A stretch of DNA of 20,000 nucleotides from Psammoneis japonica (lineage: Eukaryota), in contig QPGO01000168.1 of NCBI GenBank assembly GCA_008632985.1, forward strand, positions 114,436 through 134,435. Reading direction: 5' to 3'. The notes under the pieces were generated by a model. That model had not been told where the DNA came from and ran no database searches. It saw nothing but the letters and a program-made list of their open reading frames with translations. A program made the position numbers and the translations under genes. Position 1 is the first letter of the stretch; every line of letters begins with the position of its first letter. This document shows positions 1 to 19,350 of the stretch, one piece after another.

Positions 1-241
1 CAACATTTTCTTAAATGGGTTGATGGTTTGTCTTGAAAAGACACAATTGAGACAAAATGAAACAGTTGGCAATGAACAGGACAAAAACATTGTAAAATTC
101 AGCAATGAAATGATTGATGTCATTTGTGCACAACATGTGCTTTGGCGATGTCCTTTCAACAAGTGTTGCATTGAACAAAATTTGGTGAGCTTTTGTCATG
201 GCCAAAAATTTCTGTGACAAATTTTGTTGTGTGTGATTTGT

Positions 242-270
242 CACGACACGACACGACATGACACGACTCA
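242..270. repeat. Short pentamer tandem repeat (CACGA)n, about 5-6 units
   Basis: Sequence reads cacgacacgacacgacatgacacgactca; one unit shows CG->TG. Confidence 0.8.
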
Positions 271-1021
271 CAAAATGAACACCCACAGTGCACGATGAGG
301 ACTCATCTTGTTTGCCAGTTGTCTCTTGTGCACGATGATGATGAATCAACATGTTGATGTGATGCGGCCTGTTCTGGTGGAATTGGGAGGAACAAGCTTT
401 TCCATCAAAGTGTCTGCATTGACATCAGCAATGTGTGGTTCTGCTGTGGCCTCAGCCTGTGCTGCAGATGCCTCATGGCTTGCATTTGTGTGTTGCACAA
501 CAATGCATGACAAAAAGATCCACTGCATTCTGCACATGAGATGCATGGAAGGGAGGAAAAAACATGACTGTTCAATCTGCCATGTTTTGTCAGCCATGCG
601 TGGTTCTGCTTTTGCCTTGGCCATTCTCCAGCCACCTTGTGATTTGTGTTTGTAATGACATGACACAAGAACAGCACTTTTTTGATGACCGATCTGTTGT
701 GGTGCCAGCCACACCTCACCTTGTTTTGTGATGTGGGTGACATTCAATCAACAGCATCAACTGCACTGACTTGTGTCATGATTGACTGGTGAATTCCATC
801 ATAAAATGGATTCGAGTGTGCCATTGTGTGCTTGCCACTTTTGTTTGTTGCAGTCTGTAGTCATCTGGATGGAGCCGGCATTGTCAGTGCATGGCTCCGC
901 AGGGCCCCAGTGTGCAAGTGCATGGGTGGTTTGGCAAAACACACTTTGTTCTGTGAGCTGGTCACTTCTGAATGTTGCAATTTTTTGTGACATCAACATG
1001 TGATGTGCTGCATGGCAAATG

Positions 1022-1199
1022 TCCATTTGTTGGCATTTGTCTGCTTTTGTCAGGTTCTGTCTGCTTTTGTCAGCATTTGTTGCATGCTGTCAGTGTTTGT
1101 CAGCATTTGTGTGTGCAGACAGAGTTTGTCGGCATTTGTCACATGCTGACGGAGTTTGTCAGCATTTGTTGCATGCTGACAGAGTTTGTTGCATTTGTT
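1022..1199. repeat. Imperfect ~30-bp tandem repeat with internal palindrome (GTCAGCAT...ATGCTGAC), possibly a transposon subterminal array
   Basis: Units start at 1071, 1101, 1130 and 1160 (consensus cagcatttgtNNcatgctgacagagtttgt), with degenerate partial units at 1022-1070. Confidence 0.8.
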
Positions 1200-1259
1200 G
1201 GGCGTGTGACAAAATTGCCAAAAAATCATTCAATGTGCTTGTCTTTGCCAATGGCCAAT

Positions 1260-2990
1260 TTCATCATTCATTGCTTGGGTTGACAGCATGTTTGTGAAGG
1301 AGACACGGCATCACCAATTAAATGACAAGTTTTGTCTTGTTAATTGCCAACAATTGAAATTTGTTCAAGTGCATTTTTTCCAACAAATCATCCAACTCAT
1401 TTGTGGGAATGTTGCAATTGGTGACAAAATGCCATGTGTCCCTGGAGGGGGTTTGTGCATGAGCAGGGACAAGTTGCAGTGCACTGGCACCAAAAATGTC
1501 TCTCAGCAATGAATGTGCAGACAACTGCCAACAGAAAAAGAGGCAATTTTGCAAATGTGTGCATTCCTCCACACTTGAAGCACCTCATTTCTGCTTTGCC
1601 CAGGTGTGCATTCTTCAGACATCAGAGATCACACCCAGCTCATTTTTGTTGTTGCAAGGGGCACAATGAAAAGCCTTTGGTTTTGCAAGGCAGGGAGCAT
1701 GAGACAATTTTGTAGAAGATCACATGCAGAAAACTCTGACATTGCAGCCCAGTGGTGCAACATCTCACCAAGAGCTGGAACATGTCAAAACACAAGCAGC
1801 CAACTTTGAAAATTGCTTTTGGCAGAAAATGTGACCCACAATCACACTCCCAGCATTCAGGAGCAGAGACTTTCACAGATGCAGACAATTTTGCACTGCA
1901 CAGATTTCTGTGCAACAAGTGTGCAGGGCATTTTTGCATGGCTTCTCATGCAACCTCCAACCTCTGACTCCCTCAAGTGTTTGACATGCCACCTGTGGTC
2001 TTTTGTGTCAAATCAGTCAAAAGACACAAGCACTGGCATGAGTGGAGTTGGTGCTCTGATCATTGCATTCAAGTTTTTGTTGTTGGTGTGCCATTGTGAC
2101 AGTTCATTTGGTTGGAGCAGATTTTTCAGGTCTTTTTGGGATGTTGTCAGATGTGCTTCTCAATGTGCTGATGGCAAGAGTTGGCTCCACCACATTGTTT
2201 TTGTTTGTTTTGGTGTGTTTGTTGACATGGGAGGAGCTGGCACAAGTGTCATGGTGCTCACATCCTTTCTTGATGTTTGTTTGAGCAAGGAGTTTTTTGA
2301 CTTGGCTGTCATCCACACATGCCAGCATGGTGTTAATCTCAGATGCCAAGTTGCACAGCACATTTCATGAGTTTTGTTGATTTTTCAACCTTTTTGTGAA
2401 ATGCATTTTGAGCTGACTTGGATCAACCAAAAGCATTTTGAAATCTGGGAGGGACAAACAGCTCAGACACTGATGCTGATGCCAAGGTCAACATGTGCAA
2501 GGTCATGTGTGTGGACCTTGGTGTGAATTTTTTGCATGCAATGACAGGAGTCATTGTGGCTCTCAGAGTCATGGCACAGAAATTGTGCAAAAAGAGTGCC
2601 AGAAACAAACGCTGTCAGTTTGTCCACCCATCCGCACATGAATGTCAACTTCTCGGGAGATCAATTGAAATGCCATCTGCTCAAAGGCACTGCTCTTTGC
2701 CATGCATCAAAATGCCTTTGACCAAATGGCATTTCAGCTGAGAGTTCCCGCAAAGTCAGCAGCTCCAATCACCCTCTCACATGGCATTGTGCACATTTCT
2801 GCATGATTTGGCATTTTTTTCTCATCCAAAATGTCAGCTGTGACTCTCACAACATTTTTGAATGACTCCTGTTGATCTGTCGGTGTCTGAGCACTTTCTT
2901 CACTCTGAATGCTGGGTGGGAGTGGACACAGGCCTCTGGCAAATCCTTGAAGCAGACAAAGCAGATGAGCCCTTTCAGTTTTCAAAAATC
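1260..2990 (-). pseudogene. Degenerate coding remnant of unknown identity, probably transposon-derived
   Basis: A chain of protein-like minus-strand fragments (e.g. NIPTNELDDLLEKMHLNKFQLLAINK, HFLPKAIFKVG, MRCFKCGG, ESFKNVVRVTADILDEKK) is broken by frameshifts and stops. No family is confidently recognised. Confidence 0.3.
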
Positions 2991-3219
2991 AGCCAAACCA
3001 TGGAACTGCAGAGCACAACAAAATGCACAGCATTCCATGTCTGTGCTTTGCTGTGTTGCAAATCAAAATCATGTGTTGTGAAAGCATGGCAAAAAGCACA
3101 AAAGGTGGACAGCATGCAGTGTGATGCTGTGCATTGTCAGAAACATGGCATGATTGTGCAACTCAAAACTTTTGCTCATTGCAGTGTTGTCAAAATTTTT
3201 TGACAATCCTCATTTTGCC

Positions 3220-3960
3220 NNNNNNNNNNNNNNNNNNNNNNNNNNNNNNNNNNNNNNNNNNNNNNNNNNNNNNNNNNNNNNNNNNNNNNNNNNNNNNNNN
3301 NNNNNNNNNNNNNNNNNNNNNNNNNNNNNNNNNNNNNNNNNNNNNNNNNNNNNNNNNNNNNNNNNNNNNNNNNNNNNNNNNNNNNNNNNNNNNNNNNNNN
3401 NNNNNNNNNNNNNNNNNNNNNNNNNNNNNNNNNNNNNNNNNNNNNNNNNNNNNNNNNNNNNNNNNNNNNNNNNNNNNNNNNNNNNNNNNNNNNNNNNNNN
3501 NNNNNNNNNNNNNNNNNNNNNNNNNNNNNNNNNNNNNNNNNNNNNNNNNNNNNNNNNNNNNNNNNNNNNNNNNNNNNNNNNNNNNNNNNNNNNNNNNNNN
3601 NNNNNNNNNNNNNNNNNNNNNNNNNNNNNNNNNNNNNNNNNNNNNNNNNNNNNNNNNNNNNNNNNNNNNNNNNNNNNNNNNNNNNNNNNNNNNNNNNNNN
3701 NNNNNNNNNNNNNNNNNNNNNNNNNNNNNNNNNNNNNNNNNNNNNNNNNNNNNNNNNNNNNNNNNNNNNNNNNNNNNNNNNNNNNNNNNNNNNNNNNNNN
3801 NNNNNNNNNNNNNNNNNNNNNNNNNNNNNNNNNNNNNNNNNNNNNNNNNNNNNNNNNNNNNNNNNNNNNNNNNNNNNNNNNNNNNNNNNNNNNNNNNNNN
3901 NNNNNNNNNNNNNNNNNNNNNNNNNNNNNNNNNNNNNNNNNNNNNNNNNNNNNNNNNNNN
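3220..3960. other. Assembly gap (N run)
   Basis: Ns. Confidence 1.
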
Positions 3961-4185
3961 CTCTCTGCGCAAAGCACAGCTGACTTCTTTCTTCAGCACC
4001 TTGCTGGCATTCACAGTGCTGTGCCAGAAATGTCAGGAAAGGCAGGGATGTTTGCACAACTCTGTGGCTGGAAACAAAACAGGGGGGAACATGGACGAGA
4101 CATTGAGTTGCTTGATGAGTGTTCTTGTTTGGCACTTGTTGAATGCCAAATGGAGATCACTGAACTTTCAACAAAGAAAATGGGC

Positions 4186-4330
4186 AGTTGTTGGCAATTT
4201 TGCAGCAGCGACCGCGGCATTCAGCATCGGATCACATGAAGTGGTTGACACTTTCAACTTTCCACTCATCTCTTGGACAAACAACTTTTGGCAGAGCAGC
4301 TGTGCTCGCACTTGAGAGGCTTTTTTTTAA
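4186..4330 (+). repeat. Diverged, TA-depleted direct copy of the sequence at ~6275-6392 upstream of the glycosyltransferase gene
   Basis: 4225-4255 matches 6316-6346 at 27/31, and 4299-4323 matches 6359-6383 at 21/25 (manual alignment). Confidence 0.85.
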
Positions 4331-4486
4331 GGATGGATCTACGTGCTGCGGTCTGTTTTTTGGGAGCTCATAATTTTCACAAAAATGGCCCAGATGCATC
4401 GCAGCAAATGCACGCGCGTTCGCAAAAAAAAAAAATCAGCGATCGGTCGAACTTTGTCCGTTTGCCAGACACCCTAGAATGCTTGA

Positions 4487-5850
4487 CGCCAATCGCATCA
4501 GACGCTTGTTGCGCGATTTTGCGGCCTGCATGTGGGCCGCAAAAATCTTGTTGCAAATTTTTGCGGCCCGCATGTGGGTCGCAAATTCTTAAAATGACGC
4601 TTGTCTTGGAATGCGCACGCAAAACTTGTGTTGCCGACATCCATCATTGCACACGTGCATTTCTCAGTGGCACGCAACAAACTGCAGCAGCACAATGGTG
4701 CCCACCGCCGGTCTCCCACTTTACGGTGTGACATCTCAATGATCCTCTCACACCGATTTCCCCATTTCTTTCATCAACATTGGGAGGGAATGCACAATGT
4801 GTCCAAACAGATTGGTCCCATCTTCTGTCATTGAGAATTGTGGATTTCTGTTTTGTTCAAAACCACACAGAATTTTCAAATTTGGAAAAGCACGAAATGA
4901 TGGAATGAGCACCAATTTACAAACACTGCACAAATGGTTGTTCTTTTGTGACATGCCAAAATGGACAAAACATGGTTGTGCGGAATGTGGTTTCTGATGG
5001 CAGTCACTTGGCCACTGATCTAGTCTAGTTCCTCAACCGTGATGACAGATTGCCGCGCCAGCTTTTTTGTGGAGTCAATGGAGCGGCTGTTGCTGACACG
5101 CACTCAGCAACAATGAGCTGCGGATCTCGTGCCTCAACTGTGATGTGATGAATTGCAGACATGCCAGCTTTGCAAGGAGCAAACACTTTCTTTCAATCTC
5201 TGCCAATGCCAACTTGTGTCCTCCTGCAACAGCTCCGTCACCGCGGCGCCTGACCTCTCCTTCGTCTGCGCCCATCATGTTTTCTTGACACTTTCCCAAA
5301 TTGATCACATGGGCATGGGCAATGACCTTGAATTGCACTCGAGCTCTCTTGGCCATTGGCGACTCCACAGGAAGACTTGGAGGGGGGGCATGTGCGGGCA
5401 CAGATGGTGCTTCGGCAGCAGACTGCGACACCGGATTTCGCGGCATGTCTTGAACAGGCAAAAAAGGCATGTCCGTTCCCGCTGCAAGCAATGCTGACAC
5501 ATCTGGCACTTCTCCAACGATGTTGTCAGGCGTCCGAGATTGCTGGAGTGAACATCCTTCACCAGTGTGGCCCGCCGTAGGGTCCGCCATGGTGGAGGGA
5601 GAAATCGGCAAAAAAGTGCGCGAAAATGCACACACATTTTAGAGGCTGCGACAACAACCACTGGGACTTTTTTGACAGATGAAGTGTCGATTCCCATGTT
5701 TTCGGGCATGGAGAATTCGACTGTGGGGTCAATTCATCGATTGTCTCTATCATTGAAGATTTGAAAAAATTTGCGGCCCATGTGTGGGCCGCAAATCGTT
5801 TGCGGCCCACACACATGTGGGCCGCAAACGGGCATCTGATGCGATTGGCG
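4487..5850. mobile_element. Non-autonomous TIR DNA transposon (1364 bp) with palindromic subterminal repeats
   Basis: The TIR cgccaatcgcatcagacgc (4487-4505) pairs with gcatctgatgcgattggcg (5832-5850) at 18/19. Flanks are TTGA (4483-4486) and TTAA (5851-5854). Two TTTGCGGCCC-n-GGGCCGCAAA palindromes lie inside each end. Confidence 0.85.
5075..5590 (-). pseudogene. Internal ORF of the TIR element (MADPTAG...), unknown product, probably degenerate
   Basis: The ORF starts at ATG 5590 with a Pro/Ala-rich N-terminus followed by a helical-looking segment. No transposase motif is recognised. Confidence 0.35.
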
Positions 5851-5914
5851 TTAAACGACAGGTACGACCATGCGCGAGTTTTACCTTAACGACTGGAGAT
5901 ATGTCTATAGCCAG

Positions 5915-6040
5915 TCAAATGCCACTTATCGGCATTTCCCGGAAAGTTACCGCTAATCTCCCATAAGAAGCCCGATTTTTTTGAAAATTAGCGGTTTTTT
6001 CGACCTGACAACAGGGCACAGGTCGATAAGTGGCATTTGA
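5915..6040. repeat. Nested inverted repeats (perfect 17-bp outer stem)
   Basis: tcaaatgccacttatcg (5915-5931) pairs with cgataagtggcatttga (6024-6040). Inner pairs are accgctaat (5949-5957)/attagcggt (5987-5995) and tcgacctg/caggtcga (6000-6026). Confidence 0.85.
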
Positions 6041-6458
6041 AGCGCCAAATGTGCAGCTCTTATAGCCGTCTAACAGCCCCTATGAGGGTTTGACGAACGC
6101 ACAAGTGTTCGGGGGTGTTCCGAGGCAGGTCAAAATAACACGGTGAAGTGCGGGAAATGCGAGCTGTTTTAAATTAGACAGCAGCACAAAGAAAATAGCT
6201 CTAGCTACTAAGTCAATTGTCAGTAATTTCGTAGTGCCGGTGGCGTCGGATCATGAAGTTAAATGAAGAGGCGATTGTAGTAATTTTTCGTTGCACCGCG
6301 CTTGATAACATCTATCATCGGATCATGAGAAGTAGTTGACACTTTCCTCTAGAGCCCTGCTGTACTCGTACTCGAGAGACTTTCTTCTCAAGCAGTCAAA
6401 GTGTTGCTCTACAAGTGTTATCAAGACAATTCTACAACGTTAAGATCATTTTCCTTCC

Positions 6459-7499
6459 ATGAAATTTTCGAAGATTGGCATCTCGGTTTTGTCATTTTCT
6501 CTGCTGGTGGTGGGTTGGACTAGCAAAGAAGCCCCTCAATTGAAAGGAAAGCAACTCGAAGTGACCGAAGAAAAGTCAGAACCTGCCACGGGCTTTGTTC
6601 ATTACAAAACGACACGGAGCTCTGGCTGGAATAACCAGCGCGAGGGTGCCATGATGGCTTGGATGGTTGCCTACTTTACGGGACACACGCTTGAGCTTAA
6701 ACCGTTCCATCCAGCTAACACCGGTGTCCTACCGGATCAAGGAGGATACAAGCATGGTGACCTGTGGAATCTTTCTTGTTTGGAAAAGCATGTCCAAGTG
6801 CGAAATATTCCCAGCAACAAAACGTCAGAAGGATATGATTACAATGTCAGCAGATCAAGTGTCTTCGCCAACTACTCAGAAGTACAGGCTTTGAAAAAAT
6901 ATAACAAAATCACCTATAATGGAGGCTGGGCATGCATCATTCGTGCCTTCCCATGGCTTAATCCATCACAAGAGGTGTTCTCCCATCTGATGAATTCCTT
7001 CTCCTACAACTTCGACATTCAGAGATCAGCAGATTTGGTGTTGGAAAGAATTGGTCGGCCCTACGTTGGTTTGCACATTCGAAAAGATAGATTTCCAGCA
7101 ACCAACTGTTCTGCATTGGGTCTTAACGTCAGTTCCGCGGAGGAATCCAAATTCAATTTGAGACGTTGCAAGGGATTGAACTGGACCAACGTTGTCGACA
7201 GAATGTTTCCGAATCTTGATGATGATTACCCGATCTACATTGCTCATGACAGCAGTAGCAGGATGGATCCAACCCTACTTGGCCGGAATTTTCTGCAGTC
7301 GTTTGACTTTGACTTTGTCCGCCAGCTAAGACCTGCAATCCTGTCTGCTGTGGAACAAGAAGTCATGATTCGTGCGGAGTATTTTATTCCATCTATGTAT
7401 TCTACGTGGAGTGAATATGCAGTCTTCAAGCGAGCCGTTGCAGGCAAAGCTGATGGAATGCAAAACTATCAGCACTGGAAGGCCGAGATCTGCCATTGA
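6459..7499 (+). CDS. GDP-fucose protein O-fucosyltransferase-family (O-FucT-like, GT-B) glycosyltransferase, 346 aa, with N-terminal signal/anchor
   Basis: The ORF is long, has normal Tyr content and a hydrophobic N-terminus. It carries SGWNNQRE (cf. G-x-N-N-Q-R), YVGLHIRKD (cf. H-x-R), IYIAHD and AVEQEVMIRAEYFIPSMYSTWS (cf. D/E-Q-x-I/V...F...S-T-F-S) in the canonical order. Confidence 0.8.
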   Translation: MKFSKIGISVLSFSLLVVGWTSKEAPQLKGKQLEVTEEKSEPATGFVHYKTTRSSGWNNQREGAMMAWMVAYFTGHTLELKPFHPANTGVLPDQGGYKHGDLWNLSCLEKHVQVRNIPSNKTSEGYDYNVSRSSVFANYSEVQALKKYNKITYNGGWACIIRAFPWLNPSQEVFSHLMNSFSYNFDIQRSADLVLERIGRPYVGLHIRKDRFPATNCSALGLNVSSAEESKFNLRRCKGLNWTNVVDRMFPNLDDDYPIYIAHDSSSRMDPTLLGRNFLQSFDFDFVRQLRPAILSAVEQEVMIRAEYFIPSMYSTWSEYAVFKRAVAGKADGMQNYQHWKAEICH

Positions 7500-7660
7500 T
7501 GCGCCAATGTTTTGGTTCGTGATGGGTGTCGGCTCTCCAATGCCAGGCGAATATAAAATTGAGGTTCCAAAATCTTGTACCTTTGGCGGTCTGAATGACA
7601 TTGACAGTGATCAGGTCCGTGCACAAACAGGTTAAGCTAGTAATACCTTGCACTAAAGTG

Positions 7661-7855
7661 TGTTCTAGATATTGTGAGAGATTCTGAGCTAGTCTCAGAA
7701 TCGAAGCTATGGTGGAAATCGGAGGATTTCGAGAGGTTAGCTAAACTCTGCGGAACTGCCGATGATTTTCATCACAAACTGACTGGCAGATATGACATCT
7801 TCAATCATGAGGTTCCAATGTCAAAAGGGAATGTGGAATCCCTGTCACCCCCCTT
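7661..7855 (-). mobile_element. Polypurine tract (7848-7855) and putative 3' LTR of the copia element
   Basis: The minus strand reads ttcAAGGGGGG-TGacagg just after the RNase H end. The LTR starts TG at 7847, and a candidate ...ctagaaCA end lies at 7661 (end position uncertain). Confidence 0.45.
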
Positions 7856-9783
7856 GAACCGAATGAGGGAAGATGTTGAAAGCAAGTTGTGAGAGCATGT
7901 GAGCTGGAAGATGCCAAAGAGCACGACCAACCATCACCCAGATCTTGTTGGCACTTTGGGTCTTGGCAGTGCAGTCAGTCGGTTGACTTTCTGCAGGGAC
8001 CCATGCAAGAAGGTGATGACCAAGTGTTGACCTTCTCAGAGATGCATCGAAAACGTTGCTGGATGTGTTGGGTTCGTTGGGTCTGTTGGTCATTTTGGGC
8101 CATTTGAACAGCTGCCAGTTGTCCAACATGGTGATGCTTGGGGTTGTAGACAGATGTTGAGAGTCAATGGAACAGTTGCAAGTGACAAGGCAGGAAAAAT
8201 CACAGGCCAGCATTTGCAGGTGGGCAACAACCATGGCTCCAGCGCATGCACCCATCCATTCAGATTCAGCGGTGGACATTGCGGCAGGGGTTGGGACAGC
8301 AGAGTTGGCTTCTGCAATTGCCCCATTGAAGAAAGCCACAAATCCAATGGCCAATTTTGCAGTGTCAGGGAAATCTTGCCAGCTGGCATCAGTGAAAACA
8401 ACAAACTCAGAATGGCTCATGTTGTGTGCCTCACAAATCATGTGAATTGGACTTGCAGTCAGATCAGAGCAGAATTTGATGGCAAGGTCTTGATGTTTGT
8501 GAAGATGACCAAAAAAATGTGCAAGAGCATCAAAGTTTTTCATGCCCGGGTTGGTGCAGGCCTTGGCGAGTTTGCAGATGATCTGTGCAATGTCGGCTTG
8601 GGTGTTGTGGGCAAGACAGAGGATGGAGCAGACGGCGGAGCAGAAATGAAGGCCAAAGCACTTGGTTGCAATGACCTTGACATCTGTTTCATCCTTGGCA
8701 ATCAAAAATTCAGAGAGCTCAGCAAGCAGACCACCAGAGGCCACTGCAAACAGTGCCATGTGTCCCTTTCTTGAGGTGGAGAGGGACACCAAAATGTTTG
8801 GCACATTCAGGGAAGTGCTGCTTGAGGATCAGGTTGAAGCAGACAAAGAGATGGCTGCAAGCAGGAGCTTGGAGGCAAGTGCCAACAAAATCACCATTCT
8901 TGATGCATTGTTTGGCCTGAGCAGTGAAAGCAAGGAATGGTTTGATGGCATGGGACGATGCGTTCAGGGACCAATTTTCATCGTGGGAGGACTGGCATTG
9001 CATGTTGCTGCATGCACAGTGGCAAGCTTTGAGTTTCTCCAAGGAGCCATTGGACTTCTCCTTGGTGTGGAGAGCAAGGGTGGCGCTGATGATTTTGTCA
9101 TCGGGGCAAGGACATTCGTGGAGAGTGCAGGTCTTGTTGTCCACAATGAGGTTTTTAAGCTCAGAGCATGCAGTGCACAGCTGTGCATCATGAGCTGCAG
9201 GAGGTTGTCTGAGAATGGCTTGGAAAGAACAAGGGACAGGCAAGCAGTCATCATTTGGCACAGACAAGGTGGCTTGGACAGCTTCCAGAGCCCGCTGCAA
9301 TGGATCAGGGCACTGGCACCAATTGCAGTTGATCCACGGGGATGCAACTGATGATGCGCTGCAGGCTTGCTCCTTTCAATAGAGTCATTGAACAGGACTT
9401 GCTCAAGACAATCAGCTGTGGGTTTGGAGGATGCAGCACAGATGTTTTCTTTGTCAGCAAAGTGCACAGCAGTGTGGGTGCCAGCATTGGAGCAAGTGGA
9501 GTGATGCAGGACAGGAGGGACAGGGTTGTCTGGGGGGGTTGAAGTGTCGGAATCGGAGTTGTTGCCATCCGGCTGGGGTGCAGTAGTTTCCAGAGAGGTG
9601 TCGGATTGATCGACAGTGAGGAAACCCTTGACAGTGCCTGCATGCTTGTCAGTGGGTGTGTCGTCATGGTTGGTGAGGCTGGAGGCATCATTGGAGATGG
9701 ATCAGATGGGGAGTGTGCCCAAAAAAGAGACATGATCATGCACCAAAGAAGATTTGAAGCATTCGTCAAAATTGACATCATGT
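7856..9783 (-). mobile_element. Degenerate Ty1/copia retrotransposon pol fragment (integrase C-terminal tail, linker, RT, RNase H), resembling diatom CoDi-type elements
   Basis: Motifs in order: HDVNFDECF (post-integrase DVxFDE), HHSTCSNAG (RRSTR), ELKNL...LEKLKACHCA, DFVGTCLQAP, LKKGTHG, SAVCSILCLAHNTQADIA, VFTDASWQDFPDT, AMSTAESE, LAWVPAESQ. Confidence 0.9.
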
Positions 9784-11935
9784 CCTCTTCTGAATCAGCA
9801 CCATTGTTGTTCACAGAACAGTCTGTCTTGCATGGAGTGTTGGTTCCCTTGTCAATGGATTCTAACTCATCCGGAAATTGCCCTCTGTCAGGATCACATT
9901 CCAAGGAGGATTGTCTTCATCTTCCTCACCAAAGCAAGAGATGCGCACCTCATGACCATCCTTCCTTGGCAGCAACAGACAAAAGACAAAGGCCATTCCC
10001 ACCCAGTGATGAGAGTTTAGAAAGGTCAGTGACACGGTGCTGCCTTTGAAATTGGTGTGCAAAAAGGCAGAATTGCAAAGGGAGTGGTGGCTGCTGAACA
10101 TGTTTTCCACAAGTCTGTCAACCTCACTTCTGATGGAGTTGGTCATGCTGTCTACAAACACACCTGTCTCTCTTTTCAGAGTTCCATTTTCAAACAGGTG
10201 CATCATGTTGCTGGCAGTGGAAAGGATGACCCCAAATGGTTTCTCTCTGAAGTCAGCATGAAGCAAGCAGTTGGTTGCAAAATTGTGTTGCCTCATGTGG
10301 TGCAACTGTTCCTCCTGGTGATTCCCTCTCTTTGTCATCAAGACTGTTGTCATTGGCCTTGCCCTGAACAAGCAACAAATCACAAGCACGGACCAGCTTG
10401 CATTCTTTCCAAAGGTCATCCAGCTCATTGCATCCTGTCATGCAAAAACAGGAACACCTTTGGTGGCAGTTCTTTGTGCCAAGGCAGTCACTGCTCTTTG
10501 CGTCCCCGTTGATTGGGATTGTTGTGGGAATCACACAAAGGCAGTGGATTTTGTCTCTGCATTGGACACAACACCGAAAGCTGCCACACTCCATTGTGTC
10601 AAGCAGTGGCTGAAGTGTCATCTTTAAAACCTTGTGACAGCCACACAGACTTTGCCTCTTCTCCAACTTGTGCATTGGGCTGCTGCTCGGCTGCCAATGA
10701 TGACATTTTTTCCAAGCCAGGAATGTGTCCAAGAACTCTCCACTTTGCCTTGTTGCACCACTTTTTGAAGGCAACATGTGCCAATGTCACTGTCACGGGA
10801 TCTCTGCAAGAAGATCCCATGGAAGCTGTTTTTGTTCTGTTTGTCAACACAAACTGCCAAACACTCCAGGAACTGTTTTTGTGGATCCTTGACTCCAGCC
10901 AAGTGCGTGCTCCTGTGCCACTCTCCAGCCAAAACACATTTGTCATTGATTCCCTTGGCAACATGCATGCCAAAAAGACAAGTTGGGTCCACAAGATTGC
11001 TTTTGTCTGCCCATGTGCAAGTGTCCAACATGTGTGATTGCCACACATCTTCAAAGTTTCAATGTGGTGCCATCGCTGTTTTCTCACCAAGTTCCCCTCT
11101 GGCATTTTCCAGGTTGACTGTGCCAGGAAACGACTTGGAAAGTTTGTCCATCAGTTTGCTCTGACAGGGCATTTTTGTTCCCAGCTTGATTGTGCTGCCA
11201 CAGTGCCTTTTGACAAATCCAACAATGTCATTGCACAAGTGCAGCGGCACTCTGCAATCATCTGTCAGCTTGCACAGCTCTGCACAGGCACGTTCAGGAT
11301 GCTCAGCAATGGCAAACCAGCAAAGGCAACCTTGGCAGGGTGTTGGCATGCCTTGCCCAATCTGCTGTCATCCCCAAGAAAAACATGTCCCCTTGAAATG
11401 ATGTCAATTTGTTCCTCTGTGCATCAGCAACAACTCCATGGTTGTGTCTGGCAATGCACCAAAGGAGTTGGCTTCTTACTTGCTGCTTTCCTCCAAAAGC
11501 ATCTACAGTGACATAAAATGATTCTCCTCTTTGTCACAAATGGAGAAGAGGGGGGAAATGTTGTCTTCAAATGCTGGTGACCACAATGCATCACTGTGGT
11601 CTGCTGCCCCAGCAGAAGACCCAGAATGGATTTTGGTGCCAGAGGCTCCTTGTCACAAGTGCCTCAATCCAGGTGCAGAGGAGTCATTTGATGATGATGA
11701 CAAATCAAATTTCCTGGGATCTCCATCATGAACATTTGCATTCCCAGAGGTGCTGCTGCAACCAAAACAAGGAAGAGCCAACCACATCTTGATGTGGCAA
11801 GTTTGCGATTTTGCAAGTGACAGAAAGGCACTGTGGACCATGATCCAAGTGGCTGAGCATGGGTCAGAATGACTGTTTGCAACAAGGACAGGCAAACTCC
11901 TCTTGCTCATCATGTTTGGACTGAAGAGTGTCCAT
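9784..11935 (-). pseudogene. Plavaka-like DNA-transposon transposase pseudogene, truncated at the C-terminus
   Basis: ATG at 11935 is followed by a zinc-finger-like FACPCCKQSF*PMLSHLDHGPQC. Then come VPLHLCNDIV, GEWHRST...FL...VCVDK, DPVTVTL...KWRVLGHIPGL, CHKVLKMTLQPL, INGDAKSSDCL, PFGVILSTASNMMHLFENG and FLHTNFKGSTVSLTFL. Reading H/C as former Y, these resemble Plavaka motifs as I recall them. There are many frameshifts. Confidence 0.7.
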
Positions 11936-12344
11936 TTTGCAGCAAGAACGAATTTTGATTTTGCCCAAAACAAAAGCAGAGTCCAATTCTCATTAAGTTT
12001 GGTGGTGTGTGGGGTGTGTGTGGTGGTGGGAAACAAAGAAACAAGACACAAAAATGGCACACAAACACAGTTCATTAGTTTCTTTGCATTGATGAATGCT
12101 CTTGTAGTTTCCTGCAAAATGCATGCATTTGGATCATTGAACAATTCCGGAACAAACAATTGATGACAAAGTTGATGTCATCAATGGAAAGGAAACAGCA
12201 AGTTTCAAATGGATGTTCAGTGTGAGATCTAATTGGCGCTCACTGTCAATTTGATTCCATGATGAACTGCAATGCACTCAGGAAAAAACCTTTGCTCTTC
12301 CACTTCCGTTGGTGCAGTGGGTTCAACACATCAACAACAACAGC

Positions 12345-13680
12345 CATGGCACAATGAATCAACAAGTGGTCTGAAGTGAACAATGAAGTTGGTTGTCCCC
12401 AAAACAACATGTTGCTGGCATGCTGACTTGACAACTGCTGGGAGAGATTTGCAGAGCTGAGCAGATTGACCAAAGAGAGAAGAGAAAAAATGACAGAGGC
12501 AGACTGTCATGCAGCAGAAGAAAAGCTGCGGCACTGGTTGGGCATGGAGAGGAAGGATCACTCTTGTGACCCGCACCTGCAACATGACTGCCTTGACATG
12601 CTTTGTTTGTTTAGATCTTACACTGTTCTCTTGATGAGTGACCTGGACAAAGAAGAGCCAATTGACAAGGGAATGTGGAAGGAACTGTGGGAAAGCAAAC
12701 ACCGGACTGCTGAGCCAACAATCAAGGGAGTGTGGAAGGAACTGTGAAAAAACAAATGCCGGACTGTGAGCACAGTGTGGGAGGACATGCAGGAATGGAG
12801 CAGCAAAGCATGTGAGCACATGCATGCCACCCAAGGCATCTTCTCCATGGATGAGACAACGATGAGCACATGGGTGTGATCATTGAGCACACCAGGAATG
12901 TGCACAGATCCAAGCAGCATTGAAACTCAACAGCAACACACCCGGACAGGCAAGGAGAACTGCTCTGTGTCAACAGCTGGGTGCACTGCAGTTGCAAGAA
13001 AGAGATGTTGGATGGATTGGCCACTGGATCCAGGGGGGACAACATGCATTCAGCCATGGACAAGCAAGACATTGATGCATTGAGAGAGATGTCAACCATC
13101 AGCTTGCCCACCCCCATGGAATGGACCACAACAGGAGGTGCAGACTGCTGGCATTGGGCAGCAGTTTTGGAGGTGTTTGCTTGCTTGTGATGGACAAGAA
13201 GGGTGTCACATTTGATGCCATGAAGCTGGCAGATTTGTTCAAGTGCAAAATCATGCATGACACACCCTCAAGGTTGTGGCAGTGTGATGAAATTGGAGTT
13301 CTTTGAATTGACCCTGCAGAGGGTCAATGGTTGGATGTTGGTGGAGATCATTGAGAGAATGAACCTGGGTGATGATTGCAAATGTGATTGTGAAGATAAG
13401 AAGGAGAAACAACAGCGCAGATGTGAGCACAAAGAGAAGAAAGAAAAGATCCATTGTGAACTCATCAAGCATTTTGTCAGTTGATCGCATGACTGATTGC
13501 TCTCACAGTGGAAGGTGCAGCAATTTTGTCATTGCTCATTTGGAGGAAGATGCCATGGAAGAATTGGATTGGATGCCAAGTGCGTGGTGCCAACTGGAGC
13601 TTGGAACTGCTGGGAAGGATGTGTGCATGCAGTCAGTTCATGCCGGAAGAAAATGCTTTTACAGGTGTTGAGGTTCACGC
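12345..13680 (+). pseudogene. Degenerate ORF of unknown function, divergent from the transposase
   Basis: Protein-like, charged helical fragments (WERFAELSRLTKERREKMTEAD, DIDALREMSTISLP, ELIKHFVS) are interrupted by stops and frameshifts. Confidence 0.4.
12655..12771 (+). repeat. 57-bp in-frame tandem duplication (EPIDKGMWKELWESKHRTA / EPTIKGVWKEL*KNKCRTV)
   Basis: Units start at 12655 and 12712. Confidence 0.9.
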
Positions 13681-13999
13681 GTGCACTTAGATCAGTTTAA
13701 AAAAAAATGAACATCAGCAACAAATTCAAACATTGAAATTTCAACCACATTTTTAATTGTTGTTTGAACTGAACATTTGATTGCTGAATTTGCAACAAAG
13801 AAAAATGACAATGGTGCATTCAATGAGAAACTTGCACATTTCTGTTTGTGATTGTGTTGGAATGTCAAGGTGGTTAAAATCAAGAAGCACTGAGAGGAGC
13901 ATCACATGTTGAGTGTCAAGAGAGAGGTTTGAAATTTTTGCAATGGCAGTCTTCCTGATGCACTGTTGCACAACATGATTGCAACAACACAGGCAGTTG

Positions 14000-15132
14000 A
14001 AACAAAACATTGCAACCGGCAAAGGCAATGGCAAGGAAGGAGAATGCAAGGAAGGAGAGTTTGATGGCAGATGACACACCAAACAGCCCAAGACCAACAG
14101 CAGTGTTGCAGTGGGTGGGAGCTGCTGGTGGAAAAGGTGGCACGGAGAGAGCTCTTCCCAAACAAAGCAAAATTCTCAGTGAAGGCAGACATGGCAAGTG
14201 GTGTTGTCATGGCCAATGCATGAAAACACAGCTGATGGCAAGTTCAGCAAATGAGAGCTGGCAGGATCATGGGAAGACTGGGCAAAGAAGTGCATCCTCA
14301 GTGCAATCAGCATGAACAAAAGGAACACTGTGACACAGATGACAATGAAGAGTGTGACAAGTGGCAAGTGCTGCAGGTTGCATTTCTAAGACAACATTGG
14401 GTGTGGCGCTGCCAACAAGGCTCTTGTTTTGCTGCAGTGGCGATGGTGGAAGAACAAGCCAAGGAAATGGGTGGGAGGAAGAAACCACCAAAGAGAGCAA
14501 AAAAAGCAAGAGGAGCAACAAGGTCCAAGCAGATGTTGAAAAACTGTTTGTGGTGACTTGGGAGGATGAGACAGTGGAAAACATTGTGCTTGAGAAGTGC
14601 GCAAACAAGGAGGCATGCACCTGGTTCTATGGCAATGTTCTAAAATTCACAAAGAGCACTGCAATGTGGAGAAAGATGGTGCAGTCCGGCAGCACCAAGG
14701 CTGCAGTGCTGGCTGCAGCAAGCAACAAGGCACTGGTGCTGTTGACATTGGAAAACTGCTGGAAGGTTTAGGAGCACAAGGTCACATGAGAAGGAAAGGA
14801 CAAAGGGAGCAAAGAGGAGGAGAAGGAAACAAAACCAGCGCCCTTGCACACAGACCCAATGCAACAATGTGACTCTTGGAAGGATGAAGGAACAAAGCAA
14901 TTCAATGCAAAAAAAGGGAGAGCAAAGACAAAGGAAAAAGGGCAGAACCACCAAAAAACCGGTGGAGAAGGAGACAAAAACACAAGCAACAACAGAGATT
15001 TTCAGCAACAACAAGGATGACGAAGACAAAACAGAAAAACCTGGTGACAGAAAAGATGAGGAGGAAGACAAAGAGAGCAAAGAAGAAGATGATGATGCCA
15101 AACAAAGAGCAACTGCAGCATGGGCCTGTTGA
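14000..15132 (+). pseudogene. Degenerate transposon accessory ORF with acidic C-terminal tail
   Basis: WFYGNVLKF...MWRK...SNKALVLLTLENCWKV is followed by ALCTD...SWKDEGTKQFN. This resembles the S-D-E-A-x-x-L-L-x-L-E-N / Y-T...W-x-x-x-G-x-x-x-F-N pattern I recall from ORFs beside large DNA-transposon transposases in algae and fungi. The end is D/E/K-rich. Confidence 0.5.
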
Positions 15133-15539
15133 AAATTAAAAACGGCTGCACAAAATCAGCGCTCATTGACAATCCATGTGAGCTGGCAAAAGTTGTGATG
15201 CATTGTTCATTGAGGAATGTGTTTAAAAATTCATTGCACAGTTGATGTTGAATGCAAAAATTGCCACGCACAATGTGGAAAAACAAATGCTGTTGATTGT
15301 CAAGTTCCATGCATTGAAAAAAAGCGCGCACATTGACAGTGAAAGAAGGGAGGCTGTTTGACTGTCAATTGTGATTTCCACAGCTAAGATGAGAGCTCCA
15401 CAGCAAACATCAACTGTCTTTCACAGTCAACCAATTGTTGCCAGCTGCGCAACTGATGAGGTTTGAAACTGTAAAAATGACACCCATGACAGGAATGAAA
15501 ATTGCTGTGAGAAAGATGGTGTCAATCACTGTGTTGCAT

Positions 15540-15832
15540 GCTCTGATGATGTGATGCAGACCCAAGCCACTCTCATCTCTGTGAAGACAACAATGCCTCC
15601 CTTGTGATGGCCTCTGCCAGTCAACCCACTTGCGGCACCCAACACATTGACACCCAACACTTTGACATCCAACACTTTGCTCTTCAAGGTTGGGCAGAAC
15701 AAGATCTTGTGTGATTGGACTGAGTGGACACCACAGCCAACTGCAGTGATGAACTCACAAAGAACTGTGCCAGGACACTCTTCTGTTGGCACCTGGACAC
15801 ACTCACTGGCTGTCGCTGACCAGCGCATGTTC
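15540..15832 (+). mobile_element. Second Ty1/copia fragment: RNase H C-terminus
   Basis: The frame reads LCEDNNASLVMASASQPTCGTQHID...IQHFALQGWAEQDLV*LD*VDTTANCSDELTKNCARTLFCWHLDTLTG, matching the copia YEDN...RTRHIDIK.F...N.AD.LTK pattern. Confidence 0.9.
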
Positions 15833-15919
15833 TGCGCAGCAGCAAAGACCACTCACAGCACTGTTTTCCAGTCAAACAGTGCTCCTCCTCTCACCAGGGT
15901 GCTGCTTTTCCTGGTGTGA

Positions 15920-18081
15920 GGGCATTTCAGTGGAGTGGTCATTCCCATGTGCAAACAGTGAATCACTCTCACAAAATGACAGCCACTCTTCCTCCATGAC
16001 CTGCAACTCCTTTGCCAAGACCTTGCTTCAAAACAAGCACTTCTTGTCATTTGGACATGTGCAGAGAGAGCAGTGCCCTGACCCCTGTGGTGTCAAACAA
16101 GTCCATCTCAATGCTGTCTTGTTGAATTTGTGGCAACTGACCGTGGCTGGAAGTCTTGCTGCATTTGTGATGTGTGGACTGCTTCAACACAACAGAAGTG
16201 CATGCCGCCATGCACTTTTGCCAGAACACACAGCAACATGTGTTGTTGTTCATGCACACCACCATGGCCTTTTTTCACTGTTCATTGTTGTTCCCAGAGA
16301 GAAGCACATGCATCAGGGTTGCGCTCCAATTTGATGGCAGCTGCCAAGAGTGCATGCCAGATGCAGACCATTTTGGGTTTTTTGTGGATGATGCAGCGTG
16401 TCTCTGAGATGTTCCTTGCACCATGATTGAGGTTGGTCTGCACAATTTGTTGCAAACGACAACTGAATCCAAGCAACATCAAGACAAAACTTTGTCTCAT
16501 CATGGACACCCAACCATGGCAACAAGAAATTGCCACAGTCACTGGTGACATGGCTGTGTCTTTGTCACAATGTGAAGCAACCAACAACATTTGTGTGGTG
16601 TCCTTGGCATGTCCAGTCCAGCATGCAGTGGTGGCATTCCTTGGGAGACCAAGTCATGTCAACCACAAGCCACTGCACTCATCCATCTGTGTCTCCCCCC
16701 TGCCCCGACCGGACCAGAGACTGATGGGTGAGACAAAGTTGGGGTTTGGGGTTGACCACTTTCAAAATGACCAAATTGGCAAGTGGTCTTTGCACACAAA
16801 ATGGCACCCAATGACTTTTGAAGGCTTTGGGACTTGTCACAAATCACTTGGCAAAGATTGCCTTGGTCGTTGTTGGGTTGGGATGCCATTGACTCTTGGC
16901 CAATTGACTGGCCATTTCCACATTTTGAGGTCATCAATCTCAAACAACAGAGCAACAGTTGTTTTTGTCTTTCAATTGTTCACCTCCATCTGTGTGCATG
17001 ATGTGGCACTTCCATTCTGTTGAGATGATGGATTTTCAAATTTTTGTGCTTTTTTGCACATGCTTGCTTTCAAACTGGCTGGAAATCATGCACGATGCAG
17101 TGGACAACTCTGACCCCTTTGTCTCAGCATCTGACAAGGACAGTCAAGCAGCGCAATCTTGGATTGTTGCCACACATTGTCAAAAATCAATGTCCAAACA
17201 TTGTGACCTTCAACTGCAATGCCTTGCACAGTCATTTGCAGCAGAAGCCTGAGAGCCATCTTGGAGCCCTCTTGTGTGCCTGAAGCAGCCAAGGAACTCA
17301 TTCAATGCCAATGACATGCCCTTCATTTTCATTCCATCAAGTTTCTTCCTAAAACAAAGCAGTTGTTGTCACTCCAGACAGAACCACACCACAGACCCAG
17401 GTGTCTCTGCAGTCAAAGTTGCTTGTTGACAACTGGGTTCTCAGTTGCTCTCCCTTGCAGCTTGTGCACAGTTGTTGTGTTGTTGCACAAAACTGGGAAC
17501 TGAGTTGTTTGTGTTCTCTGATTGATTTTTGGAGTTCTCTTGTCAATGAAACCCACAACAGGGACAAGAAAGTTGATGGTGCATGTCTCTCTTCTTGGAG
17601 CCACATGAAACAGACCCCCCTGCCTTTTCCTCACAATTCCTTAAGACAATGGACTCAACTTGTGAGACACAGGCTGACCTTGCTCAACAACTGTCAATCA
17701 TCATCAACTCCAAATCATCCAGAGAAACACCTTCCTTTTGGCTCAACTCCCTCAAAAAAGCCAACAGTGCCATTGGTCTCTTTCATCTCCACATCTGCTT
17801 GTTGAGATTCACCATCAGAGGGCCCATTTCTGCTGAGGGCACATGTGCCATGAGTTGCTTTGCCATTGATTGCAACAGCTGCTTGACCGGCAATTGCAGT
17901 GACCACCACAGTGCGCTTTGTGAAAGGCACCCCAAGCTCCTTGCAGAATTTTTTGCATGCTGTGACACTGTCAATCACAGTGCTTTTGCCTGAACCTCTG
18001 GTGCTGGCAAGAAAACAAAGCAGCTGACCTCCACCCTGAGACCCAATTGGTTTGTTCTAAATCCCTTTTCACACTGCTCAA
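15920..18081 (+). mobile_element. Highly degenerate non-LTR retrotransposon remnant (RT followed by an RNase H-like segment)
   Basis: Ordered fragments are TK*QPLFLHD, NSFAKTL...REQ...HLNAVLL, DCFNT, GFFVDDA (Y/FxDD) and NIKTKL, then FVSASD..SWIVAT...QSFAAEA (RNase H-like SDGS...SxRAE). Confidence 0.5.
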
Positions 18082-18576
18082 NNNNNNNNNNNNNNNNNNN
18101 NNNNNNNNNNNNNNNNNNNNNNNNNNNNNNNNNNNNNNNNNNNNNNNNNNNNNNNNNNNNNNNNNNNNNNNNNNNNNNNNNNNNNNNNNNNNNNNNNNNN
18201 NNNNNNNNNNNNNNNNNNNNNNNNNNNNNNNNNNNNNNNNNNNNNNNNNNNNNNNNNNNNNNNNNNNNNNNNNNNNNNNNNNNNNNNNNNNNNNNNNNNN
18301 NNNNNNNNNNNNNNNNNNNNNNNNNNNNNNNNNNNNNNNNNNNNNNNNNNNNNNNNNNNNNNNNNNNNNNNNNNNNNNNNNNNNNNNNNNNNNNNNNNNN
18401 NNNNNNNNNNNNNNNNNNNNNNNNNNNNNNNNNNNNNNNNNNNNNNNNNNNNNNNNNNNNNNNNNNNNNNNNNNNNNNNNNNNNNNNNNNNNNNNNNNNN
18501 NNNNNNNNNNNNNNNNNNNNNNNNNNNNNNNNNNNNNNNNNNNNNNNNNNNNNNNNNNNNNNNNNNNNNNNNNNNN
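18082..18576. other. Assembly gap (N run)
   Basis: Ns. Confidence 1.
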
Positions 18577-18849: not shown

Positions 18850-19350
18850 NNNNNNNNNNNNNNNNNNNNNNNNNNNNNNNNNNNNNNNNNNNNNNNNNNN
18901 NNNNNNNNNNNNNNNNNNNNNNNNNNNNNNNNNNNNNNNNNNNNNNNNNNNNNNNNNNNNNNNNNNNNNNNNNNNNNNNNNNNNNNNNNNNNNNNNNNNN
19001 NNNNNNNNNNNNNNNNNNNNNNNNNNNNNNNNNNNNNNNNNNNNNNNNNNNNNNNNNNNNNNNNNNNNNNNNNNNNNNNNNNNNNNNNNNNNNNNNNNNN
19101 NNNNNNNNNNNNNNNNNNNNNNNNNNNNNNNNNNNNNNNNNNNNNNNNNNNNNNNNNNNNNNNNNNNNNNNNNNNNNNNNNNNNNNNNNNNNNNNNNNNN
19201 NNNNNNNNNNNNNNNNNNNNNNNNNNNNNNNNNNNNNNNNNNNNNNNNNNNNNNNNNNNNNNNNNNNNNNNNNNNNNNNNNNNNNNNNNNNNNNNNNNNN
19301 NNNNNNNNNNNNNNNNNNNNNNNNNNNNNNNNNNNNNNNNNNNNNNNNNN
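18850..19350. other. Assembly gap (N run)
   Basis: Ns. Confidence 1.

Follow-up and report, generated by a model that had tools for sequence, protein, structure and literature searches.

Mutational silencing of mobile DNA is, to our knowledge, well known only in the form of fungal RIP, which senses duplication, mutates both copies by C to T changes (CpA to TpA) and leaves TA enriched. The footprints attributed to ADAR and APOBEC are strand-specific and made on RNA or on single-stranded cDNA, and for the loss of TA we know of no accepted chemical counterpart. A search of the full-text literature for a process that erases TpA returned a single preprint of 2026, on the alga Bigelowiella natans, and nothing on diatoms or transposons; we know of no other description of such a process. 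That preprint (Mettrop et al. 2026, bioRxiv 10.64898/2026.01.13.699255) reports de novo TpA→TpG/CpA changes confined to particular regions in mutation-accumulation lines, hypermutation of integrated viral DNA with a Rho TpA of 0.45 in a giant-virus region, and an over-representation of reverse transcriptase and DDE domains among TpA-poor coding sequences.

The locus analysed here lies in a 20,000-nt stretch of Psammoneis japonica DNA (contig QPGO01000168.1, positions 114,436 to 134,435; hereafter the window) and contains two copies of one sequence, which differ in their TA content. Copy A (4155–4349, plus strand) is the TA-erased duplicate, secure to about 4326 and with a tail that overlaps a repeat block, and copy B (6249–6407, plus strand) is the gene-proximal, TA-normal duplicate, ending 52 nt 5' of a start codon. 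Their homology is evidenced by a gapped local alignment score of 34.5, to be compared with a mean of 11.49 (sd 1.28, maximum 16) in 200 shuffles. The alignment comprises 149 columns at 79% identity and holds 31 mismatches, of which 21 are transitions and 10 transversions. It is broken by no fewer than 7 gaps, one spanning some 33 nt, and includes an ungapped 38-nt core at 82% identity (4218–4255 against 6309–6346); a MAFFT alignment of the copies was poor and none of the counts derive from it. The duplicated sequence, in direct orientation, belongs to the 5' flank of a gene of the O-fucosyltransferase family and measures some 170–195 nt. Copy A is placed 2.1 kb upstream of copy B, at the margin of DNA where TpG/CpA have taken the place of almost all TpA and of most CpG, with a nested high-copy transposon block (about 4327–6190) between the two copies. 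The three sequence blocks quoted in an earlier note on this DNA are all present at the places it gave, and of the wider spans that it proposed to align (3961–4340 and 6050–6420) the core formed by copies A and B is homologous, the remainder not being so. Indeed, the left flanks of the two copies are dissimilar (313 of 1000 shuffles reach the flank score), and a long target-site duplication, in which homology would extend as far as the edge of the repeat on either side, was considered and set aside as unproven, as 6189–6248 has no significant partner to the left of 4155.

Comparison of the two copies site by site evidences a selective absence of TA in copy A. The TA doublets at 6278, 6333 and 6363 of copy B face TG at 4192, 4242 and 4303, those at 6281 and 6369 face CA at 4195 and 4309, and the CG at 6373 faces TG at 4313, so that all six site pairs of the earlier note, namely five TA turned into three TG and two CA and one CG turned into TG, are confirmed. 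Over the whole alignment, copy A keeps none of the seven ungapped TA of copy B: six, namely the five above and one at 4222 of copy A, are a single transition away, as TG (3) or CA (3), and one faces TC, or TT under alternative scoring. Retention from copy B to copy A is 0/7 for TA versus 79/123 for the other dinucleotides (Fisher p=0.001), and versus 4/6 for CG (p=0.02), the two remaining CG having become one TG and one CA. Within the alignment tail (4327–4349) copy A has two TA, one of which faces a CA of copy B. Although these TA-type and CG-type sites are real, the pair is not the clean 'before/after' comparison that had been proposed, and to say that it shows the mutation spectrum directly was an overstatement: only 8 of the 31 mismatches are of TA or CG type (6 of the TpA→TpG/CpA kind and 2 of the CpG kind, in a pair that is old and without an outgroup), 22 of the 31 are neither TA-type nor CG-type (12 transitions and 10 transversions), several indels intervene, and copy B has diverged too. 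Copy B is a diverged cousin and not the 'before' state, and selection may act on it as promoter or 5'UTR sequence. By itself the pair is a small and old illustration, made of seven sites, and not a clean measurement of a spectrum.

The direction of change at these sites was addressed by searching for a third copy. A permissive aligner run over both strands of the window gives next-best scores of 13–15 versus 34.5 for the pair, blastn inside the window finds none, a pattern scan across the conserved core in JGI metagenomes returned 0, and the contigs of one sample contain none, the depth over both copies being that of single-copy DNA. As no third copy was found, we infer the polarity at the pair sites from other evidence in the same window; on that evidence the claim that TA is ancestral stands as the best reading for copy A's seven sites, although neither a third copy nor an orthologue was found in window, contigs or metagenomes. 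Elsewhere in the window the direction is that of TA loss. The target duplication of the inner transposon described below has changed from TTAA to TTGA on its TA-poor side, while TTAA is kept on the right. Also, among the differences listed for the contigs of one sample, other copies of this inner element have TA where the window has TG at 4996 (4/4 contigs) and at 5648 (17 contigs, depth 1413/1450), and TA is present in a minority of the other copies at 4804 and 5707. The six CA/TG doublets between copies had been considered as proof of TA ancestry and were given less weight, since they would equally arise from CpG. An internal repeat unit of the island (6211–6239 against 6269–6298) proved weak as an outgroup (8/1000 shuffles reach it); the corresponding unit in copy A falls short of significance (123/1000 shuffles), parsimony being symmetric in any case.

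Variation at the locus was analysed in the contigs of one sample, for which the differences listed amount to 40 of 546. Copy A and its left flank have a summed contig depth of 62–72, corresponding to one contig, and are single-copy to about 4320; the depth over copy B is about 57, and contig X1 has 0 differences from the window over 6188–7307. The window and the contig differ at 7/391 positions in the copy A stretch versus 0/1120 in the island (p=7e-5), and the six copy A differences among those listed are all transitions. At 3997–3998 the contig has TG and the window CA; CG is lost in the contig at 4215 and 4229, and at 4313 it is lost in the window and kept in the contig. With copy B as outgroup to both versions of copy A, polarised CpG→TpG/CpA changes are read at 4215, 4229 and 4313.

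The TA content of the window varies by segment, as a mosaic and not as two clean domains. Over 1–3219 and 7751–18081 the observed/expected ratio (O/E) is 0.04–0.05 for TA and 0.14–0.16 for CG, with TG and CA at about 1.8–2.2 (over the whole window, TG 1.75 and CA 1.81). The left flank of copy A (3961–4154), which follows a run of N at 3220–3960, has 0 TA versus 12.9 expected and a CG O/E of 0.18, and the absence of TA continues to 4326 (0 versus 25.4 expected over 3961–4326), copy A having a TA O/E of 0.14 and no TA before 4327. From this flank rightwards the TA O/E reads 0.0, 0.14 in copy A, 0.36, 0.09 and 0.84 in the three parts of the transposon block, and then the values of the gene island. 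The latter, 1.9 kb from 5851 to about 7745, has an ordinary dinucleotide content: copy B has 9 TA versus 12.9 expected (O/E 0.70) and a CG O/E of 0.97, the TA O/E of the open reading frame is 0.46, the non-coding stretch 7500–7750 has 14 TA versus 19.5 expected, and TG and CA stand at about 1.0–1.3, from which it follows that the island has no TA excess. The regional contrast beside ordinary DNA is thus of 0.04–0.09 versus 0.46–0.84 for TA, and of 0.14–0.18 in TA-poor DNA versus 0.7–1.5 in the island for CG. TA content switches at 5850/5851 and at 7745–7790, the left switch taking about 100 nt and the right one about 50 nt; at the left edge, 5749–5850 has 0 TA (5.6 expected) and 5851–5950 has 9 (7.5 expected).

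The block between the copies is made of an outer high-copy repeat interrupted by an inner element. The left arm of the outer repeat (4327–4482) has 4 TA versus 11.2 expected (O/E 0.36) and a CG O/E of 1.33, and is less TA-depleted than both its neighbours (p=0.001–0.02); its summed depth is 4787 (bin 4345–4472) versus about 60 for single-copy DNA, the single-copy contig ending at 4351 and a contig of another run matching from 4327. The right arm (5855–6188) has 19 TA versus 22.8 expected (0.84), a CG O/E of 1.12, a summed depth of 3880–4768 (5881–6136) and a hairpin with arms at 5915–5940 and 6015–6040, and at 6188 the single-copy contig begins. The inner, non-autonomous element (4487–5850) is TA-poor and CG-rich, with 8 TA versus 84.4 expected (0.09), a CG O/E of 0.78 and a contig depth of 550–1700; it has GC-rich subterminal palindromes and terminal inverted repeats, with arms at 4483–4510 and 5827–5854 that are inverted and 86% complementary and with ends (4487–4590 and 5765–5850) that are alike and inverted. 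Among the few TpA left in the TA-poor DNA are those at 4328–4475, 4590 and 5021–5026. The left target-site duplication of the inner element, TTGA (4483–4486), adjoins the left inverted repeat, and the TA-normal island begins exactly with the right one, TTAA (5851–5854). A contig joint from 4482 to 5851, which skips 1368 nt and leaves 2 letters assignable to either side, indicates that the empty site has TTA here. A TTAA target duplication is typical of piggyBac, and the inverted repeats, the TTGA/TTAA flanks and the fit of the empty-site joint may indicate a piggyBac-like element; the open reading frames of the element gave no Pfam match and no transposase was found among them. A scan of JGI metagenomes with the repeat-arm hairpin returned 0 family copies, Rfam gave sub-threshold hairpin matches on the element palindromes only, with copies A and B free of them, and a search for tRNA genes found none.

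Two coding sequences, one on each side of the right edge, allow the direction of change to be read at the protein level. The core of the island is an intact open reading frame of 346 aa (6459–7499, plus strand), which matches PF10250, the GDP-fucose protein O-fucosyltransferase family, with 34 bits (cutoff 31.5; E=3.2e-8) over profile positions 6–324 of 326; its 6 homologs all carry PF10250, the best at 50% identity, and it keeps Tyr at 11/16 Tyr-majority columns. The contigs also hold a second copy of this gene, at about 87% identity. In the TA-poor DNA to the right of the island lies a dead, probably copia-type pol fragment (7845–8828, minus strand) with 417 homologs at E≤0.001, which would correspond to the region after the reverse transcriptase: RVT_2 directly precedes the matched part in 3/3 homologs tested (P0008, P0009 and P0013), and the reading frame itself has no Pfam match. 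This fragment has 0 Tyr in 327 aa versus 2.4–6.9% Tyr in 25 homologs. At its 12 Tyr columns it has Cys (5), His (3), Phe (2), Trp (1) and Leu (1), with TGY or CAY codons at 8/12, so that Tyr is kept at 0/12 columns versus 11/16 in the island gene (p=2.5e-4). Pfam gave 0 matches for 21 long open reading frames of the TA-poor DNA.

Altogether, we consider it probable that copy A was rewritten by a DNA-level, TpA-specific A:T→G:C process and that copy B was spared at the edge of the island. Such a process would turn A:T into G:C at TpA whichever strand is hit, with TG or CA as the outcome, and a slower, ordinary CpG→TpG/CpA decay would run alongside; it would stop at the edge of the gene island, and copy B would in this way escape. 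Copy A would have been changed in place, and the edge would be set by chromatin state. As for the chemistry, the leading guess would be that a deaminase brought to silent chromatin converts adenine into hypoxanthine, the alternative being that TpA carries a symmetric modification that is mutagenic. Since the two copies are equally old, age does not explain their different TA content, and equal age with different fates indicates that neither their own sequence nor duplication as such is the trigger. In this respect the statement of the earlier note that fate depends on location rather than identity is upheld in part: context matters and not the sequence itself, but pure location is inseparable from the history of the carrier element, given that transposons lie between the copies, that TA loss is a mosaic and that the edge at 5850/5851 coincides with the end of a transposon. 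In fact, the TA poverty of the inner element, ending as it does at the element's own end, fits a positional domain no better than it fits an inherited or element-aimed depletion. As to the targets, the copia-type fragment and the terminal-inverted-repeat element are TA-poor and the single-copy copy A is erased, while the high-copy right repeat arm is spared. A wider reading, which we put forward tentatively as possible but somewhat short of probable, is that the process acts by chromatin and not by copy number, as a TpA counterpart, outside Bigelowiella, of the CpG and CpG-island system. Its edge would then be sharp on the scale of a nucleosome, and only tens of bases would part the erased copy A from the intact copy B region if the transposon block were absent; single-copy DNA would be fully erased and a gene-adjacent repeat arm in dozens of copies spared; TpA would be removed faster than CpG is by methylation, and the activity may have continued since the two versions of the locus diverged.

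The explanation that most directly competes with an effect of chromosomal position is that copy A is a gene-flank fragment captured by, or lying inside, an old decayed transposon that was itself targeted or already mutated. The coincidence of the left TA edge with an exact transposon end fits this, as do the element-by-element differences in TA O/E, the TA-free state of all DNA to the left of copy A, and the sharing of much of the TA-poor state by the copies of the inner element, of which a TG at 4858–4859 common to 10–15 contigs indicates that mutated elements still spread. However, depth shows copy A and its left flank to be single-copy, they have neither a protein-family match nor a repeat partner in the window, copy A shares the orientation of copy B and lies only 2.1 kb away from it, as fits a local duplication, and the high-copy right arm is unmutated, so that we regard capture as unlikely. 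Quite improbable, in turn, is that a TA-loss bias acts genome-wide and that copy B and the island keep TA by functional constraint only. The proximity of copy B to the start codon, as a candidate promoter or 5'UTR, and the intact island reading frame would be expected in such a case, but selection would have to shield almost all TA in non-coding DNA and in transposons, including those of the 334-nt right repeat arm and of the stretch 7500–7750 counted above, and to do so up to switches as abrupt as those at the two edges.

The evidence on polarity bears on a further alternative, in which the ancestor had TG/CA and TA arose in the island copy through C-to-T changes like those of RIP. Parsimony is symmetric as long as only two copies are compared, a tie that the weak island repeat unit does not break; yet the island has neither a TA excess (O/E 0.46–0.84) nor a deficit of TG/CA, its reading frame is intact and keeps the Tyr residues of its family, the pol fragment in the TA-poor DNA has Cys and His in place of Tyr, and the opposite direction is indicated both by the TTAA/TTGA duplication and by the family copies that have TA, all of which makes a gain of TA highly improbable. 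Barely plausible, finally, is an ADAR-like editing of RNA copies before reverse transcription, leaving A-to-G footprints. A copia-type element is affected, and the upstream U/T preference typical of ADAR, as mentioned in the Discussion of the preprint (10.64898/2026.01.13.699255), would agree with TpA as target. Against this, TG equals CA in copy A (3:3), with nearly balanced ratios over the window (1.75 versus 1.81), and a terminal-inverted-repeat DNA element, a target-site duplication and single-copy DNA were changed too; the involvement of both strands, of single-copy DNA and of a DNA transposon argues against editing of retroelement RNA. We thus retain, as the probable explanation, a DNA-level change of copy A.

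The interest of the locus is that it provides a natural control, in which equally old copies of one sequence met opposite fates, that the losses of TpA and of CpG are separable and differ in speed, and that its edges at 5851 and 7745–7790 are defined at base level, as a reference for tests of chromatin or DNA-modification maps. Compared with known systems, it shares with RIP of Neurospora and other fungi (see PMC7296669 and PMC3318451) a transposon inactivation that is mutational and not purely epigenetic, as well as transitions in one dinucleotide context with a strong compositional footprint. It differs in that TA is depleted and TG/CA enriched, the direction being TA to TG/CA, in that copy B keeps normal TA (0.70) whereas copy A has none before 4327, and in that the pair is short (about 170–195 nt) and 79% identical. 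The ADAR and APOBEC footprints of retroelements are likewise context-dependent, deaminase-type transitions in mobile DNA, but here both strands are affected, and non-retroelement DNA as well. A further comparison is with the decay of CpG by deamination of 5-methylcytosine around CpG islands, where a palindromic dinucleotide also becomes TG/CA outside gene-proximal islands; the window carries a CpG deficit, a TpG/CpA excess and polarised losses, methylation itself being putative. The loss of TA is faster than that of CG in the window (0/7 TA versus 4/6 CG kept in copy A; O/E 0.09 versus 0.78 in the inner element). With respect to B. natans, the rate was measured directly there and the depletion is mild, whereas in the window it is near complete (O/E 0.04–0.09), extends over most of the 20 kb, is combined with CpG loss and affects transposon relics and a single-copy flank in another organism, not integrated viruses. 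The two nonetheless have features in common: TpA is the target, in B. natans the only one, and becomes TpG or CpA according to strand, the affected DNA is regional and lies beside DNA with a normal spectrum, its long-term composition is low in TpA and high in CpA+TpG, and its SNP density is elevated.

The window is eukaryote-like in character and extreme in composition: dinucleotide counts over its whole length give observed/expected (O/E) ratios of 0.11 for TA, 0.30 for CG, 1.75 for TG and 1.81 for CA, and most 250-nt bins hold 0–2 TA (runs of N occupy 3220–3960, 18082–18576 and 18850–19350). TA reaches normal density at 5852–7742, beyond which there is a single TA at 7791 and then one at 8147. 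The borders of this island are abrupt, the density switching between adjoining intervals from 0 TA (5.6 expected) at 5749–5850 to 9 (7.5) at 5851–5950, and from 7 (8.4) at 7645–7744 to 1 (13.2) at 7745–7944. The larger TA-erasing phenomenon in this window is real. The island contains one intact ORF (6459–7499, 346 aa), whose match to the GDP-fucose protein O-fucosyltransferase family exceeds the Pfam cutoff and for which six homologs, none above 50% identity, were found.

Depletion is graded among segments. TA and CG O/E are 0.0 and 0.18 at 3961–4154, 0.05 and 0.16 at 7751–18081, 0.14 and 0.58 in the TA-erased duplicate termed copy A (4155–4349, no TA before 4327), 0.09 and 0.78 in an inner element (4487–5850) and 0.36 and 1.33 in the left arm of an outer repeat (4327–4482), whose TA depletion is milder than that of both neighbours (p=0.001–0.02). 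Within the island they amount to 0.84 and 1.12 in the right arm (5855–6188), 0.70 and 0.97 in the gene-proximal copy B (6249–6407) and 0.46 and 0.71 in the ORF. Clearly, in the younger segments the loss of TA runs ahead of that of CG. The 7751–18081 region also displays many overlapping ORFs of 150–330 aa on both strands, because near-absence of TA leaves no TAA or TAG stops; none of 21 ORFs scanned there had a Pfam match. A 10-nt-period array of seven overlapping 65-nt copies spaced 10 nt lies at 1016–1189, within TA-free DNA.

Copies A and B had been presented in the earlier note as a before/after record of TA erasure, and the three sequence blocks and six site changes quoted for them are all in the window. 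Their gapped local alignment scores 34.5, compared with 11.49±1.28 (maximum 16) in 200 shuffles, and spans 149 columns at 79% identity, with 31 mismatches (21 transitions, 10 transversions). None of the seven TA of copy B aligned gap-free is retained in copy A, where three read TG, three CA and one TC, against 79/123 non-TA dinucleotides retained (p=0.001). The loss is also more complete than that of CG, as copy A keeps four of the six CG of copy B, the others being one TG and one CA (p=0.021). The observation is confirmed, and its interpretation partly supported. The pair is not a clean record: 22 of the 31 mismatches belong to neither the TA nor the CG type, gaps occur at several places (one of them ~33 nt long), and the alignment tail at 4327–4349 has two TA in copy A, one of them opposite CA in copy B; across the wider spans proposed, the flanks are not homologous. 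Being of equal age, the two copies make a useful control, though a small and old one that has no outgroup.

What separates the two copies was analysed with contigs placed on 3961–7800 from the only sample with this stretch (three runs). Depth is ~57–72 over 3961–4216 and 6265–7544 and 550–4800 over ~4327–6190 (summed over contigs, a maximum of 4800 where single copy gives ~60), and the left single-copy contig stops at 4351 while the right one starts at 6188, so that each of the two copies is unique, with a high-copy repeat block in between. The inner element carries terminal inverted repeats (4483–4510 and 5827–5854, 86% complementary) and, in subterminal position, GC-rich palindromes. Next to it stand TTGA on the left side and TTAA on the right side, and it ends to the base at the island's left edge. 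A contig joint from 4482 to 5851, two letters matching both sides, represents an empty site reading TTA, and hence the inner element is nested in the outer repeat (arms 4327–4482 and 5855 to ~6190). The block at 4327–6190 thus consists of nested high-copy transposons, the inner one inserted at a TTAA of the outer repeat; several contig joints correspond to shorter relatives that lack the inner part. Compared with microRNA precursor models, the palindromes at 4511–4592 and 5770–5828 matched plant and animal ones below threshold only (best 33.7 bits, gathering score 100); as hairpins they are no ground for assuming a microRNA. The right arm, present in dozens of copies, has normal TA (19 against 22.8 expected) despite the adjoining TA-poor element.

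In respect to polarity, no third copy of the pair was found in the window, in the sample at a likeness of at least 80%, or by pattern scan in metagenomes, and a weak repeat unit within the island leaves the symmetry of the pair unbroken. The O-fucosyltransferase gene has a second version in the sample contigs, at equal depth and ~87% identical to 6497–7307 (811 nt, with 108 differing letters and 29 gaps). It represents a paralogue or else a very divergent allele; the part upstream of it differs from the window and could contain the missing third repeat copy. Independent evidence comes from a putative copia-type ORF located in TA-poor DNA beyond the island's right border (7845–8828, minus strand; 417 homologs, all three of those tested carrying an RVT_2 domain immediately ahead of the matched region). 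It has no Tyr in 327 residues, compared with 2.4–6.9% in 25 hits, and at 12 columns where at least 40% of 15 homologs have Tyr it carries five Cys (TGY), three His (CAY), one Trp, two Phe and one Leu, whereas the island gene retains Tyr at 11 of 16 such columns (p=2.5e-4). The TTAA target duplication reads TTGA on its TA-poor side. Among 40 listed contig differences (of 546), sorted into 34 events, other family copies have TA where the window has TG or CA at 4804, 4996, 5648 (17 contigs) and 5707, with 4309 ambiguous; the reverse occurs once, at 6632 within the gene, relative to its second version. Six of the events are CA/TG doublets, in which both versions are derived and a CpG ancestor fits as well as a TpA one. 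Since the island has neither TA excess nor TG/CA deficit, it represents the ordinary state. The same-window evidence thus favours TA as ancestral, as the earlier note had proposed, and at the pair's own sites, for which no third copy was found, this state would apply by extension.

Why, then, was only one copy erased? Both share the same time since their split, which removes age, their own motifs and duplication as such as causes, and a spared high-copy right arm beside an erased single-copy copy A indicates that the trigger is not copy number either. If selection acted on copy B only, the spared arm and the non-coding 7500–7750 would be left unaccounted for. Part of the pattern may, to judge by the TA mosaic, be historical: many copies of the inner element share its TG/CA states, so that it may have been TA-poor on arrival, and the copy A stretch could be a relic of a targeted element. 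We accept that context, and not own sequence, set the fate of each copy; chromosomal position may be that context, but is not cleanly separated from element history.

TA is replaced equally by TG and CA (3:3 in copy A; O/E 1.75 and 1.81 in the window), and the replacement occurs in single-copy sequence as well as in a DNA transposon, its target duplication and a putative retroelement fragment, which argues for a DNA-level, both-strand process rather than RNA editing. Such a process may be adenine deamination at 5′-TpA, or a mutagenic symmetric TpA modification, and would be confined to silent chromatin, CpG decay being presumably separate and slower. Window and contig differ at 7/391 positions in the copy A stretch and at 0/1120 in the island (p=7e-5), and each of the six substitutions listed is a transition. 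The only contig over 3961–4351 has these seven substitutions plus three small deletions, whereas that over 6188–7307 is identical to the window; the differences include one CA/TG doublet (3997–3998) and three CpG losses, which copy B as outgroup assigns to the contig (4215, 4229) or the window (4313). A locally raised, still acting mutation rate fits these differences, though coding constraint in the island may also contribute and the contig may stem from either another haplotype or another strain.

Among known systems, RIP was rejected, its direction being opposite and only one of two copies being mutated here. Full-text searches of the literature yielded no description of a TpA-erasing process besides a 2026 preprint on Bigelowiella natans. 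In that study, 231 of 302 nuclear mutations in mutation-accumulation lines fell in two integrated viral regions, where all but one were A:T→G:C, every such change being at TpA, and an ADAT2-like deaminase was proposed (bioRxiv 10.64898/2026.01.13.699255). The TpA signature and regional restriction are common to both systems, whereas the present locus differs in its near-complete erasure, in its target (transposon-rich DNA and single-copy flank instead of integrated viral regions), in the superimposed CpG loss, and in being known from sequence comparison where the B. natans mutations were counted de novo. The phenomenon in this window is most aptly classed as another instance of this recently described TpA-erasing hypermutation.
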